Below are positions 11,073 to 55,176 of a stretch of 64,000 nt of DNA, one piece after another. Every line of letters begins with the position of its first letter. Within the stretch, counting starts at the first letter, position 1. Where the stretch lies: contig OX597839.1 of NCBI GenBank assembly GCA_951406725.2, positions 19,654,001-19,718,000 of the forward strand, in the 5' to 3' direction. The position numbers and the translations under genes were made by a program. A model generated the notes under the pieces. The model made no database searches and was not told where the DNA came from. It saw nothing but the letters and a program-made list of their open reading frames with translations. This DNA is from Octopus vulgaris (lineage: Eukaryota).

Positions 11073-12289
11073 CGAGGGACGTTCAATAAGTAATGCCTCT
11101 GACCCACTTGCAGTTGTTTGATCTAGCTGAAATTTTGCATGTGCAATCATTGATATCTCTATAGAGTAAGTGGCAACTTGCAGCTCTGAATTAATTGTGG
11201 TTTCTGATTTACAGGTGTTTGAACTGAGTCAAGTGTGAAATGGAGCCTGTTGAGTGTCGAGCAGTGATCCGGTTTTAATATTTGAAATGACGCACACCAC
11301 GGGAGACTTTTGATGAAATGAAAGTAACTTATGGTGATGATGCCCCATCATATGACCTTGTAAAACGCTGGCATCGTGAATTCAAACATGGTCGGAACTC
11401 TGTGGAAACAGCTCCCAGATCTGGTCGCCCCTTCTGCCATTGATGAGGCATCTGTCCGTCAAGTTGAGGCTGCCATTTTGGAAGATCGACGCATAATTAT
11501 TCGCCAAATAGCCCATGAGGTCAAGATTAGTACCGGGTCTGTGGAAACTATCATTCATGGCCATTTGCATATGCAAAAGGTGTCTGCCAGATGGATTCCC
11601 AGGTTGCTCACACCTTTCCAGAAGCAAGAACGCGTCGAGTGCTCGAGGGTGAATTTGGAGACGTGCCAAGAAGATGAGTCAAAATTTTTCAAAAGACTGA
11701 TTACACAGGATGAAACCTGGATCCATCACTATGATCCAGAGACCAAGCCCAGTCAATGCAGTGGAAGCACCGTGACTCAACCCCTCCAAAGAAGGCAAGG
11801 GTGCAGCCCTCCTCTGGCAAGGTCTTGCTCACAGTCTTCTGGGACCAGGACGGAGTAGTGAGAAGTTATCAAAATCAAGAGGCGGGGCAAGATCAGCAAA
11901 GGCATCCTCCTCCTGCAGGACAACGCTCCGGTCCACAATTCGCTTGTCGCCAGATCAGAAGCACAGGCGTATGGCTATGAACTCCTCCCCCATCCCCCTA
12001 CTTTCCTGACCTTGCACCCTCTGATTTTCACCTCTTCCCAGTCATGAAGTTGTTTTTGAAAGGAAAGCGTTTCCCAGATGATGCAGCCTTGATTTCTGAA
12101 GTCACGTTCAGGTTGGAGGACCAAGCTGGGGTCTTCTACAAAAACGGTCTCCAGAGCTGCGTCAAACAATGGGAGAAATGCGTAACTCTGGGTGGTTCCT
12201 ATGTAGAAAAAGACTAATAACTGTTCCAAGTTTCGTTGCTCTACTGCTATGGGAAGTGGGTCAGGGGCATTACTTATTGAACGCCCCTC

Positions 12290-12343: not shown

Positions 12344-13463
12344 CTGTCGGTCTGTCTGTCTATTGACATCGCTGATAGGAATAGTGTTTCTAAAGTAGAG
12401 AAATTCAAAGGGTTGCTTTCACCCAATAGTAGGACGCCTGCCATGTTTACAGAAGATGTGGGTTCGTATTCCAGAGGCAGCCTTCGTCCCTCGAGGTTTT
12501 ATCCTAGAGGCTTTTACTCCAATATTTGCACGCTATTCCGTATAGCTTCGTTAGCTTCGAGATCCACTAACCCAAAAAGCATATATTTATACACGTACAC
12601 ACACATATAGATAAACAGACAGATATCCAACTTGATATGGATGCCTTGTTCGAACACCGAATACTGCGTTGTTAGCCTTAAAAGATCGCCTCATATAGAC
12701 ACTTGTTGCAGAAAAGTACACCCATAGATGGTAGCTAGCTGAAATTGTCTGTTATGGGCGCAAGATTTTCTCACATCACGTGACTTCAGTGTACTGAAAC
12801 TCATCTGGGTTCCCTCCCCTTCTCGCCATATCTCTGACACAAGGTTGTGTCGTTAACCAGATGGAGGAGATGTTCTCCTGGGTTTTGAAAAAATGTATTA
12901 ACCGATTTACGTACGGAGCAGCCATGTTGAAGTGGCAACAAAAGTAGTGCTCCAGCATGGCCACAGCCTCTTGCTGATGCCAGAGAAAGATTAAATAAAA
13001 GATGAATATGCATACGAACACGTAACGAATTCGAACATAAGGATAAGCAATAAACAGGGGAAAAGGGTCAAAGATAATTCCTTTTAATAGATATTAGCAC
13101 TATGACCCGGCAACGCTTAAGGGCTTTGCTGGGTGACTGGGGAAATGTAAAGATGTGCACGACCACCCTTGGACGGCTTTGAATGACCATAGTAAGTGTG
13201 AATTTGTATAAAGGATACACACACACATACACACACACACACATACACACACACACACACATTTTGCCATTTATATATATAGAGATAAACTTATTCTCAT
13301 AATAAAGTTATAATTTCTGATATGTTCGGCAAGCGTTCTTAACATGATGCATGAAATATTCTCATCTTGCCCACACACAACATACTCCAAACTACACGTC
13401 GTCAAACACATTTCTGTCCCATGCCAACCACAAATCCGAGCACCTCAACTAACTTGACCCCTA

Positions 13464-22055: not shown

Positions 22056-23324
22056 CGAGGGGCGTTCAATAAGTAATGCCCCTGACCCACTTCCCATAGC
22101 AGTAGAGCAACGAAACTTGGAACAGTTATTAGTCTTTTTCTACATAGGAACCACTCAGAGTTACGCATTTCTCCCATCGTTTGATGCAGCGCTGAAGACC
22201 GTTTTTGTAGAAGACCCCAGCTTGGCCCTCCAACCACGACGTGACTTTAGAAATCAAGGCTGCATCATCTGTGAAATGCTTTCCTTTTAAAAACAACTTC
22301 ATGGCTGGGAAGAGGTGAAAATCAGAGGGTGCAAGGTCAGGAGCGTAGGGGGGATGGGGGAGTAGTTCATAGCCGCACGCCTGTGCTTCTGATCTGGCGA
22401 CACGCGAGTTGTGGACCGGAGCGTTGTCTTGCAGGTAGAGGATGTCTTTGCTAATCTTGCCCCGCCTCTTGATTTTGATAGCTTCTCTTAATTTCCTCAA
22501 AAGTGAAGCATAATAGGCTCCTGTAATTGTGGTACCCTTTGCCAGGAAATATGTCATCACTACTCCGTCCTGGTCCCAGAAGACTGTGAGCATGACCTTG
22601 CCAGCGGAGAGCTGCACCCTTGCCTTCTTTGGAGGAGGTGAGTCACGGTGCTTCCACTGCATTGACTGGGCTTTGGTCTCTGAATCATAGTGATGGACCC
22701 AGGTTTCATTCTGTGTAATCAGTCTTTTGAAAAATTGGCACATCTCCAAATTCATCCTCGAGCACTCGACGCGTTCTTGCTTCTGGAAAGGTGTGAGCAA
22801 CCTGGGAATCCATCTGGCAGACACCTTTTGCATATGCAAATGGTCATGAATGATAGTTTCCACAGACCCGGTACTAATCTTGACCTCATGGGCTATTTGG
22901 CGAATAGTTATGCATCGATCTTCGAAAATGGCAGCCTCAAAATGACGGACAGATGCCTCATCAATGGCAGAAGGGGGTGATCAGATCTGGGAGCTGTTTC
23001 CACAGAGTTCCGACCATGTTTGATGCCAGCGTTTTACAAGGTCATATGATGGGGCATCATCACCATAAGTTACTTTCATTTCATCAAAAGTCTCCCGTGG
23101 TGTGCGTCCTTTCAAATACAAAAACCGGATTACTGCTCGACACTCAACAGGCTCCATTTCACACTTGACTCAGTTCAAATACCTGTAAATCAAAAACCAC
23201 AATTAATGCAGAGCTGTAATTTGCCACTTAATCTATAGAGATATAAATATTTGCACATGCAAAATATCAGCTAGATCAAACAACTGCAAGTGGGTCAGAG
23301 ACATTACTTATTGAACGTCCCTCG
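22056..23324 (-). mobile_element. Mariner transposon (same family as 11073-12290), defective
   Basis: Same TIRs and TA flanks. ORF 22129-22863 covers the catalytic domain. Confidence 0.95.
22129..23157 (-). pseudogene. Mariner DD34D transposase pseudogene
   Basis: WIPRLL, ITQNETWVHHYD (first catalytic D to N), LQDNAPVH, HPPYAPDLAPSDFHLF. N-terminal frameshift deletion near 23020 and loss of EDESK. Confidence 0.92.
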
Positions 23325-32260: not shown

Positions 32261-32389
32261 ATTTATTATATAGAAGGAGTTCTACAGGACTAGTACTGTT
32301 TCATTCAAGAGAAATCTTCAGGAACATAGGTTCCTGAAGATTTCTCTTGAATGAAACAGTACTAGTCCTGTAGAAGCTCCTTCTATATA

Positions 32390-32395
<6 letters not shown>
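32261..32395. repeat. Near-perfect palindrome (65-bp arms, 4-nt loop) with hammerhead-like core
   Basis: ...GAAATCTTCAGGAAC atag GTTCCTGAAGATTTC... Confidence 0.9.
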
Positions 32396-49648: not shown

Positions 49649-49712
<64 letters not shown>

Positions 49713-49763
49713 TAACAATGATAAATCTCAGAGCGAGTTATAAACAGTAGCGGTAACACATCG

Positions 49764-50108
49764 TGTTGCATATTTGCCATTTGAATATGGCTAACCCCTA
49801 AGGGTGGATGCTACTGTAGTTTGTAGCCCCAGGAAGATATCTCCTCCAGCTGGCTATAGACACACTATCTGTGTCCTGTCAGTATTTGTGAAGGGATTGT
49901 CACACGCTGATGAAAGGTAAACACCTTGAAACTCGGGTACGTGTGTATCATGTGTTGAAGACGGGGAGGATGACTCCCCTTCACAAATACTGACAGGACA
50001 CAGATAGTGTGTCTATAGCCAGCTGGAGGAGATATCTTCCTGGGGCTACAAACTACAGTAGCATCAACCCTTATGGGTTAGCCATATTCAAATGGCAAAT
50101 ATGCAACA
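49764..50108. mobile_element. Inverted-repeat element (132-bp arms, 81-bp spacer), PLE-pLTR-like
   Basis: 49764-49895 is the reverse complement of 49977-50108 with about two mismatches. Bounded by (TA)n. A relative starts at about 63890. Confidence 0.9.
49901..49945 (+). ncRNA. Type I hammerhead ribozyme (minimal, PLE-type)
   Basis: Stem I CACACG/CGTGTG, core CTGATGA, stem II AAGGT-aaac-ACCTT, GAAA, C-tcgg-G stem III, GUA cleavage triplet (cut after 49939). Confidence 0.85.
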
Positions 50109-50521
50109 TATATGCAATATATATATATATATATATCTTCAAGAGAGCGAGAGAGAGATAGGGAGAGACAGACAGACAGAGAAGCAGAGAGAGTGAAAGG
50201 GAGAGAAAGACGCGTGTGTATTTGCACATGACTGAGTCCAATGTGTCTGTTTTATTCACAGATCACACACAGCAAAATCGTCCCAATGCAATAGAACTTA
50301 CTTCGCCATTTAAGAATATATTACAACCGTGATAGAATTACAGACGTAATGACTAACCACAATGTTATTCACTGAAACCCTTGTATGTGGTGCCCCAGAT
50401 TACCTACAGTCCAACGATTATACAAGGGGTTCTCAACCGGTTTTATTTTACCTGTGGACCCCACTCGATTTTTATTATACTCTCTGGTGGAGACCCAACG
50501 CCACTCGAAGTTTAGAAACTA

Positions 50522-54005: not shown

Positions 54006-54723
54006 GTATATATTTATATATATGCATGTATGTATATATGTATTCTTGTATGTATATATGTATATCCACAAATATCAATATGTTCTTCAATTTCTTGTGT
54101 GATCATGTCTTTCACTGTCAAACTATAGAAATACTGAAGGTTCTGAACACTTCAAAAATTTGGAGTCAATATTTTTTTATATTTAGTGACTATTTTTTCA
54201 TAACATCTTGACTGGGATTTTTTTTCCCATTATAGTCTATATATAAAGTGCTCTCGACTGTGGTTAATGGAGAAGGCTTTTTAATATTGCAATCTCTACT
54301 AATCATGAATATCGATAAGTCTCCAACATTCGACCACATAATTGTGCTAATATACAAAAACACTAAATCAATCAGGCACTTCAGATAAGTAGATACCAAA
54401 TATATATGAGCATGGGATCAATCAGACTCCGATGGGACTGATGTAGTTCCATCAGTCAGCCAGACTTGTGTTATGTAGTAGAGTCAGTAAAAAATGTACA
54501 AATAACTTGCCGCGGGGAATGGAAAAGTCTAACGTTTCGGGCAGAATACTTCATCAAGAAAAAGTTGATAACAGTAAAATTAATGCGATACAGCGGAGTA
54601 TCTAATTTAGAAAAAAACAGTCGCAACGATGGACCTTTCTGTTCTCACGGAAGTTCATTATACACATTCTTATCGGTTTTATTGCATATGTACATACATG
54701 CATACATTATATATATATAATGT

Positions 54724-55176
54724 ATGCGCTGGCTCGGACACGTCTGCCGCATGCAGGACGGTCGCATGCCTAAAGACATCCTGTACAGCGAACTCACCAT
54801 GGGATCCCGACCCAAGGGATGTCCACAGCTACGATACAGGGATGTGTGCAAGTGCGACCTGAGGACTGCCAACATATGTGTGGACACGTGGGAGGTAACA
54901 GCTGCTGACCGCTCTGCCTGGCGTCGGACAGTGAGGAAAGGCGTTTCCATGGCTGAGGAAAGGAGAGCACAGCTGTGGTCGGACAGGCGGGACAGGAGGA
55001 GGACAACTGCAGCAACACCCCACACGTACCCATCGATGTTCGTGTGCAGCAACTGTACCAGGGACTGCCACTCTAGAATTGGACTGTTCAGTCACAGCAG
55101 ACGCTGCTCATCATCAAAGTAGGCCCCACCCTTGGCGCGACCCATTGTCTATCAAGACAGACGGTAGAAGAGAAGA
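54724..55176 (+). mobile_element. 5'-truncated RTE-clade LINE with C-terminal zinc finger
   Basis: Stop-free RWLGHVCRMQDGRMPKDILYSEL..GSRPKGCPQLRYRD...DRSAWR...CSNCTRDCHSRIGLFSHSRRC (stop 55120-55122). Short 3' UTR with hairpin TGTCT atca AGACA and a GAAGA-repeat tail into (TA)n. Confidence 0.92.

Follow-up and report, generated by a model that had tools for sequence, protein, structure and literature searches.

The inverted repeat described here is a head-to-head insertion of a hammerhead repeat into a (TA)n microsatellite, likely made in trans by a Penelope-like reverse transcriptase-endonuclease that extended two cDNAs on one RNA. It lies at 49714-50108 of the window, that is, the whole stretch of 64,000 nt of the Octopus vulgaris genome that was analyzed (contig OX597839.1, positions 19,654,001 to 19,718,000). 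Judged from its sequence, the feature is a single insertion of a dispersed, tandem, non-coding unit of 353 bp, a non-LTR retrozyme. What the initial annotation had singled out is real, and it is what one would expect from an element of a known kind, namely from a retrozyme that was inserted with the geometry of a Penelope-like element (PLE). For the integration of animal retrozymes, a PLE motor has been proposed earlier from co-occurrence and homology to PLE pLTRs. The octopus family itself bears the PLE integration signature, consisting of head-to-head copies, a tail and TA targets.

Structure of the window insertion

The two inverted arms that had been called at 49764-49895 and 49977-50108 were recovered with a length of 132 nt, 98% complementarity (2 mismatches), and a spacer of 81 nt. 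However, the insertion as a whole extends from 49714 to 50108 and is 50 bp longer than first called; the left arm has a tail of 50 nt without a counterpart in the right arm. Alignment with the family unit shows that the left arm (49714-49895, minus strand) is a 5'-truncated copy comprising unit 222-353 and 1-50 (equivalent to 222-403), with its outer 3' end at a position termed site B, and that the right arm (49895-50108, plus strand) is a 5'-truncated copy of unit 140-353, with its outer 3' end at site A. The tail (49714-49763, minus strand; unit 1-50) is of the PLE type and corresponds to the stretch between the start sites A and B. The left arm is identical to the unit L013:1919-2271 at 179 of 182 positions and the right arm to the unit at 212 of 214, so that the window copy matches the family unit at about 99% of its positions. 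The two copies meet at a head-to-head inversion junction (49895-49896; unit 222 / unit 140) with a microhomology of 1 nt. The 3' ends of both arms point outwards into the (TA)n target microsatellite, which occupies 49655-49713 on the left and 50109-50136 on the right, where it is preceded by a short, slipped duplicate of the end of the arm. A possible 8-nt target duplication, ACATATAT, is uncertain in this simple sequence.

The hammerhead does reside in the 81-bp spacer, as had been noted, but the spacer is not a loop built around a ribozyme; it is the stretch of the right copy that is absent from the left copy. The insertion contains one hammerhead and less than one unit per arm. A rod-like circular RNA with the 132-bp arms inside the unit was also considered and could be ruled out, as the unit is composed of 140 + 81 + 132 nt and contains the arm once.

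Conservation and predicted activity of the hammerhead

The type I hammerhead motif (49901-49945, plus strand; predicted cut after A49939) is built as the initial annotation had described it, with stem I at 49901-06/49940-45, CUGAUGA at 49907-13, stem II at 49914-18/49923-27, GAAAC at 49928-32, UCGG, and GUA at 49937-39. Stems I and II comprise 6 bp and 5 bp, respectively, and stem III consists of 2 bp with a 4-nt loop. Stems I and II thus enclose the core elements CUGANGA, GAAA and NUH, which follow one another in the required order. This hammerhead was the only site in the 64 kb that matched a strict type I descriptor, and no match was found in 300 Markov-simulated windows. A loose core pattern was weak in the window, with 8 matches versus a mean of 2.3, and 8 matches were reached in 5 of 100 shuffles. 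Rfam gave a divided answer: the window motif itself had no match, whereas a sibling subfamily scored 32.2 bits (E 1.3e-6) with the full RF00163 model, for which the gathering score is 34.

A conserved core and covarying stems among genomic copies, whose absence the initial annotation had listed among the points that would refute it, were both found. Two-sided changes were observed in 5 of the 14 hammerhead pairs among 16 units that are 70-100% alike, and the resulting covariation score was reached by 0 of 500 shuffles, a control that ignores relatedness; slid controls scored far lower. The variant rate of the GAAAC box was 0.2%, versus about 5% elsewhere. In other subfamilies, the basal base pair of stem II is frequently open (10 of 16).

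In the predicted fold of the whole insertion transcript, stems I and II have pairing probabilities of 0.82-0.96, and that of stem III in the monomer is about 0. Stem III, which in metazoan hammerheads is short and palindromic, falls into an 8-nt near-palindrome (49931-49938), which is a perfect palindrome in sister subfamilies and for which a self-duplex of -8.9 kcal/mol is predicted; such self-pairing would be consistent with the dimer model of PMC4209133. Because the window copy has a single hammerhead with a stem III that is hardly paired in the predicted monomer fold, efficient self-cleavage in cis is uncertain. A related mussel monomer was cleaved slowly (PMC7229834), and some activity of the window monomer is therefore possible. 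Only one of nine dimer elements was cleaved in vitro in another study (preprint 10.64898/2026.07.22.740005), and ribozyme activity is therefore not to be assumed. An AUG within the hammerhead core starts a frame of 27 codons (49910-49993), probably by chance; the ORF of the anole Poseidon element likewise begins inside its hammerhead (PMC11167929).

A dispersed family of non-LTR retrozymes

The search covered 2.8 Gb of the genome in 227 contigs. At the longer loci, a unit of 352-353 bp is repeated head to tail, up to about nine times in a row, with one hammerhead each; the core lies at unit 152 and the predicted cut after unit 184. The unit has no coding capacity (its longest ATG frame comprises 46 codons) and a GC content of 41.6%; in its predicted fold (z = -9), a long stalk bears the hammerhead at its tip. 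Exact copies of the 33-nt core of the window hammerhead were found 126 times genome-wide, those of a 30-mer from a sister subfamily 799 times, and those of a 21-mer from the tail at least 1,377 times, the latter number being a minimum for the family; the reversed control gave 0 in each case. Several subfamilies that are 70-98% alike retain the length and the structure of the unit. Units are closer to one another within an array than between arrays, a pattern compatible with circular and multimeric templates alike. An old fragment of the arm sequence, about 81% identical, was found elsewhere in the window (12846-12882).

At the level of the family, these repeats have the hallmarks of non-LTR retrozymes: tandem units within the range of 150-450 bp, each with a type I hammerhead, a non-coding sequence with low GC content and strong self-pairing, and target duplications of more than 4 bp, which are 11-15 bp long at non-microsatellite sites (L004, L005, L101, L114, L130, L165, L173 and L178). 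The insertion is young, non-autonomous and of the PLE type, and it contains an inverted segment, as the initial annotation had proposed; more precisely, it can now be described as that of a tandem-unit retrozyme. The octopus family has many features in common with the metazoan non-LTR retrozymes (PMC7229834, for mussel repeats of 350-390 bp; preprint 10.64898/2026.07.22.740005), namely tandem units of about 350 bp with one type I hammerhead, no coding capacity, a GC content below 45%, high self-pairing, long target duplications, and PLEs in the same genome. In the accessible text, these retrozymes are described as tandem arrays and monomers, and the word "inverted" does not occur in PMC7229834. 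Unlike these described retrozymes, the octopus family, known here from its DNA, includes many head-to-head insertions with a PLE tail (36 of 68 loci selected by the hammerhead), and no homology to a PLE pLTR was detected among the sampled loci. Nothing relevant was found in the literature on octopus hammerheads, and "ribozyme" is absent from the accessible text of a 2026 octopus repeat annotation (PMC13282606).

Insertion geometry across loci

In total, 128 loci were classified, of which 27 had been retrieved with an inverted-repeat query (a biased selection), 68 with the hammerhead, 30 with the tail, and 3 otherwise; same-place duplicates, most LINE-bearing loci, and three divergent loci were left out. 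Head-to-head copies were present at 81 loci and single-orientation copies at 46, and one locus was complex. The outer ends cluster at two sites about 45 nt apart, site A (unit ~347-357) and site B (~398-403). At 75 of the 81 inverted loci both ends could be classified, and all 75 combined one A with one B end, with no A+A and no B+B. Four pairs of these loci look like segmental duplicates, so that about 71 can be considered independent. The remaining 6 inverted loci have one end elsewhere. In the set selected by the hammerhead only, A+B was found at 34 of 34 inverted loci with two classifiable ends. A family with 70% identity, which was counted by eye, had 18 inverted among 30 loci, 15 with A+B and 2 with one end elsewhere; at L261 the ends are A/A-like, as the second arm stops about 10 nt into the tail. 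The copies of the family exhibit the inverted, 5'-truncated head-to-head arrangement, the tail at one end, and the AT-rich target of PLE-type insertions.

The arms within a locus differ by 1.7%, compared to 3.6% between loci, and are closer to each other in 45 of 49 cases. Rare variants were shared by both arms of a locus in 29 instances and confined to one arm in 132. The A arm reaches further towards the 5' end of the unit at 55 of the 75 loci and the B arm at 15, and both reach about equally far at 5. At 27 of the 75 loci, including the window copy (A 140-353, B 222-403), each arm contains sequence that is missing from the other. Microhomologies of 1-10 nt were found at 39 junctions, and the junction and the arm length were different at every locus. 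Clustering of the 5' truncation points at the cleavage site (unit 185) was not observed. Because the unit of this family is short and protein-free, the mechanism can be followed by counting: an event has one A and one B end and a single template, and the A copy leads.

Proposed mechanism of insertion

By analogy with known retrozymes, tandem units would be transcribed and cut by the hammerhead, best as a dimer, to monomers or circles. A protein, presumably from a PLE, would bind the RNA near sites A and B, 170-220 nt downstream of the cleavage site. Staggered nicks would be introduced into both strands of an AT-rich target, in agreement with the 11-15-bp duplications observed. A multimeric or circular RNA would serve as template for both cDNAs, and each strand would be extended from a different site, A or B; the pairing of the two sites is observed, and their simultaneous use is assumed. 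The A copy would usually extend further 5'. Joining of the two truncated cDNAs by microhomology would then generate the inverted repeat, with its length and its "loop" set by the points at which the copies stopped. Because of this dependence on the stopping points, the 132-bp hairpin would be a by-product of integration.

PLEs are known to leave an inverted copy and a one-ended tail (PMC8557442, PMC3846280), and one PLE has been shown in vitro to nick both strands and to extend them from two internal start sites, which mark the limits of the tail (PMC11167929). With PAc, the choice of start site in vitro did not differ between the strands (PMC11167929), so that the strict pairing of A and B is derived from the genomic copies only. 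A strict rule of one A and one B end was not encountered in the accessible text of the PLE literature, where "tail at one end" loosely implies it. The insertion unit of endonuclease-positive (EN+) PLEs (PMC8557442, PMC3846280, PMC11167929) and the octopus copies have in common the head-to-head arrangement, the one-end tail, AT-rich or (TA)n targets, and, downstream of the hammerhead, a pair of internal start sites. Unlike the EN+ PLE unit, the octopus repeat is devoid of an RT/GIY-YIG ORF, and its tail has about 43-50 nt instead of 30-40 nt. The strict A/B pairing, the evidence for a single template, and the lead of the A arm are quantified for the octopus repeat, and were not seen in the accessible parts of these PLE papers.

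PLEs in the octopus genome

Young PLEs with intact RT frames are present in the same genome. None of the autonomous PLEs sampled, at 40 GIY-YIG loci and at 32 loci belonging to a second family, was found to share sequence with the retrozyme; a tblastn comparison of five PLE proteins with the window gave no match, and no RT/GIY-YIG ORF was found in the unit. The initial annotation had asked whether genomic copies of the arm adjoin PLE ORFs. The arm belongs to a dispersed family; copies adjacent to PLEs look nested, and no terminal repeat in common was found at the sampled PLE loci. Retrozyme pieces beside PLEs at L038, L085, L097, L114 and L184 have the appearance of nested insertions and not of fusions.

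One young PLE family (L081-L096) has an intact frame of 781 aa for RT and GIY-YIG, which is preceded by an overlapping frame of 479 aa without a Pfam match; near its 3' end it has a variant hammerhead-like motif, and two 3' ends about 40 nt apart were observed. A very young high-copy PLE family (L307-L318) with open frames of 1,100-1,214 codons and a partial tandem structure has a hammerhead-like motif of its own about 120 nt from the TA end.

A LINE at a fixed site in the retrozyme

Several retrozyme loci break at unit 126 against one common foreign sequence. This sequence is a LINE of 5.3 kb with APE, RT and zf-RVT domains (PF03372, PF00078, PF13966), and the closest solved protein to its ORF2 is human L1 ORF2p (E 4e-64). 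This LINE of the L1 superfamily lies upstream of the hammerhead, 26 nt from its core and 59 nt from the predicted cut. It was recorded at loci L131, L210-L226 and L227-L256 and inserts at unit 126-145, with duplications of 18-20 bp in eleven full-length copies; it is absent from the window copy.

A 30-mer from the 3' end of the LINE had 19 exact copies, all of which are followed by the retrozyme target; 18 continue into the hammerhead, and in the remaining one the 20-bp target is followed by a second LINE. As this 30-mer pattern had been derived from retrozyme-adjacent copies, the analysis was repeated with the end of ORF2. Of the best 30 of 3,694 candidates, 19 lie at the retrozyme and 1 at a target remnant, while 7 (a sister clade) lie at a second shared site, 1 at a site resembling it, 1 elsewhere, and 1 is truncated. 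The wider LINE family is thus not exclusive to the retrozyme. Target specificity has been defined as more than 20% of the flanks belonging to one sequence type at a fixed position (PMC4494074), and the octopus LINE is well above this value in both sets (19/19 and 19/30). Moreover, LINE copies that are about 1-3% apart reside in retrozymes that are 70-98% alike, which points to independent targeted insertions. These comparisons use only short distances, as the LINE tree contains long-branch artefacts from truncated rows and has an unsettled bootstrap.

The seven sister-clade copies (L243, L244, L249-L251, L253 and L254; C2 at ~14.7 Mb and C27 at 22.8-26.2 Mb) share a different 3' flanking sequence, which represents either a second target or a segmental duplication; this site (L243) had no match in Rfam. 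Among distant LINE relatives from metagenomes, mostly 24-37% identical, a relaxed hammerhead was found at 0 of 80 loci with a descriptor that missed 3 of 4 positive controls.

Target-specific LINEs of the Tx1 clade insert into transposons, snRNA genes, microsatellites and unspecified satellites, for example Tx1 into Tx1D, Keno into U2, Kibi and Koshi into microsatellites, and Tx1-Mar into Mariner (PMC4494074, PMC4640811). Like these, the octopus LINE has an ORF2 with APE, RT and zf-RVT, occupies a fixed site in a multicopy sequence, duplicates its target, and forms tandem copies around the duplication. Its target, in contrast to the Tx1 targets listed in these two papers, is a hammerhead retrozyme. 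The "satellite" targets of Tx1 are given without detail in the accessible text and could include ribozyme repeats (PMC4494074, PMC4640811). A LINE with a hammerhead or retrozyme target was not found in the openly accessible literature, and a retrozyme-targeting LINE appears to be undescribed so far. It would extend the targets of sequence-specific retrotransposons by a new class.

At L215 and L224, A/B inversions enclose the LINE in a manner that suggests PLE-driven copying of a LINE-retrozyme composite. In two of the eleven full-length copies (L218 and L222), the retrozyme sequence upstream of the LINE comes from another subfamily than that downstream of it. Such mixed flanks would be expected if the LINE RNA carries the upstream target; the alternative is recombination. 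The position of the LINE, its lack of a poly(A) tail, and the mixed flanks at 2 of 11 copies would fit an R2-style release with a borrowed ribozyme. If true, the LINE would be a possible case of one element borrowing the ribozyme of another. A chain of three levels, in which the retrozyme is inserted through obligate, asymmetric twin priming of a PLE enzyme on one RNA and a LINE specialized on the retrozyme is co-transcribed with it, released by the flanking hammerheads, and sometimes carried along by the PLE, is put forward as a tentative picture that we regard as somewhat doubtful in its entirety.

Expression and editing

Most of the unit is represented in contigs of four runs whose RNA origin was guessed; ends, strand and level cannot be read from contigs. 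The initial annotation had suggested mapping A-to-I editing; the A>G differences of the contigs correspond, where they could be judged, to alleles of genomic paralogs and thus do not demonstrate editing. Of 15 contig variants checked, 13 are present as alleles of genomic copies, including 8 of the 9 A>G variants; a G>A variant at unit 348 is rare, and position 350 is not judgeable at alignment ends. Runs X13, X15 and X17-X20, which carry six other organism labels, contained 46-80% of the sampled words of the unit.

Alternative explanations

Head-to-head PLE copies have earlier been explained by fold-back self-priming (PMC3846280), and the tail has been ascribed to resolution by the endonuclease (PMC8557442). 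In that case a single reverse transcription would be followed by copying of the cDNA on itself, and trimming of one end by the endonuclease would leave the one-sided tail. This would account for the private variants shared by both arms as well as for the A/B asymmetry, and the 15 loci with a longer B arm and the 5 loci with arms of about equal length also agree with it. However, fold-back requires that the copied arm lies within the template arm, and 27 of the 75 loci, among them the window copy, violate this requirement. As each arm has unique sequence there, fold-back is difficult to reconcile with these loci unless later deletions shortened the B arm, and we consider it very unlikely. The combination of shared private variants and mutually exclusive arm sequence favors twin priming on one RNA, although gene conversion between the arms may also explain their similarity. 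One A and one B end per event, a single template and the lead of the A copy together argue against fold-back, and they directly predict what the in vitro assay already available for PLEs should yield. The copies could also be truncated pLTR stumps of an unsampled autonomous PLE rather than an independent retrozyme, since PLE stumps show the same pattern of head-to-head copies, tail, and TA targets (PMC8557442) and the search for PLEs covered the best-scoring candidates only. Yet units without an ORF are joined head to tail in arrays of up to about nine, subfamilies that are 70-98% alike share unit length and structure, and the PLE matches beside copies resemble nested insertions and not fusions, which makes stumps a very unlikely source.

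Each insertion is, judged from its sequence, a potential long dsRNA on the side of the host, and the initial annotation had pointed to ADAR or Dicer. That the window locus is a host-selected gene for a self-cleaving dsRNA hairpin, which would serve as a substrate of one of these enzymes, is nevertheless highly improbable. The transcript is predicted to be very stable (z = -32) and the presumed RNA contigs of the four runs cover the family sequence, but junction and arm length vary from locus to locus, the window copy is hardly different from the family unit (about 99% identity), and the A>G differences correspond to alleles in the genome. Inversions are known to arise by L1 twin priming. Together with the physical association of the L1-type LINE and the repeat family, this might suggest that the LINE, and not a PLE, mobilizes the repeat in the manner of a SINE. 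Against this, the LINE occupies one fixed position within the unit and has a 20-bp duplication of its own, the ends of the repeat have nothing in common with the 3' end of the LINE, and the termination of both arms at fixed internal sites in (TA)n is the pattern of PLEs. Mobilization by the LINE is thus scarcely credible, and insertion by a PLE enzyme in trans remains the preferred reading.

Other features in the window

The window contains a second, unrelated, near-perfect palindrome (~32261-32395) with arms of about 65 bp, which ends in AT-rich sequence. Hammerhead-like cores are present on both of its strands (32288-32321, minus; 32334-32367, plus), and it is probably another PLE or retrozyme stump. 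In addition, transposon remnants were found at 11364-11855 (plus strand), 22132-22980 (minus strand) and 54721-55119 (plus strand), two of which resemble mariner transposase and one the end of an RTE-type LINE.
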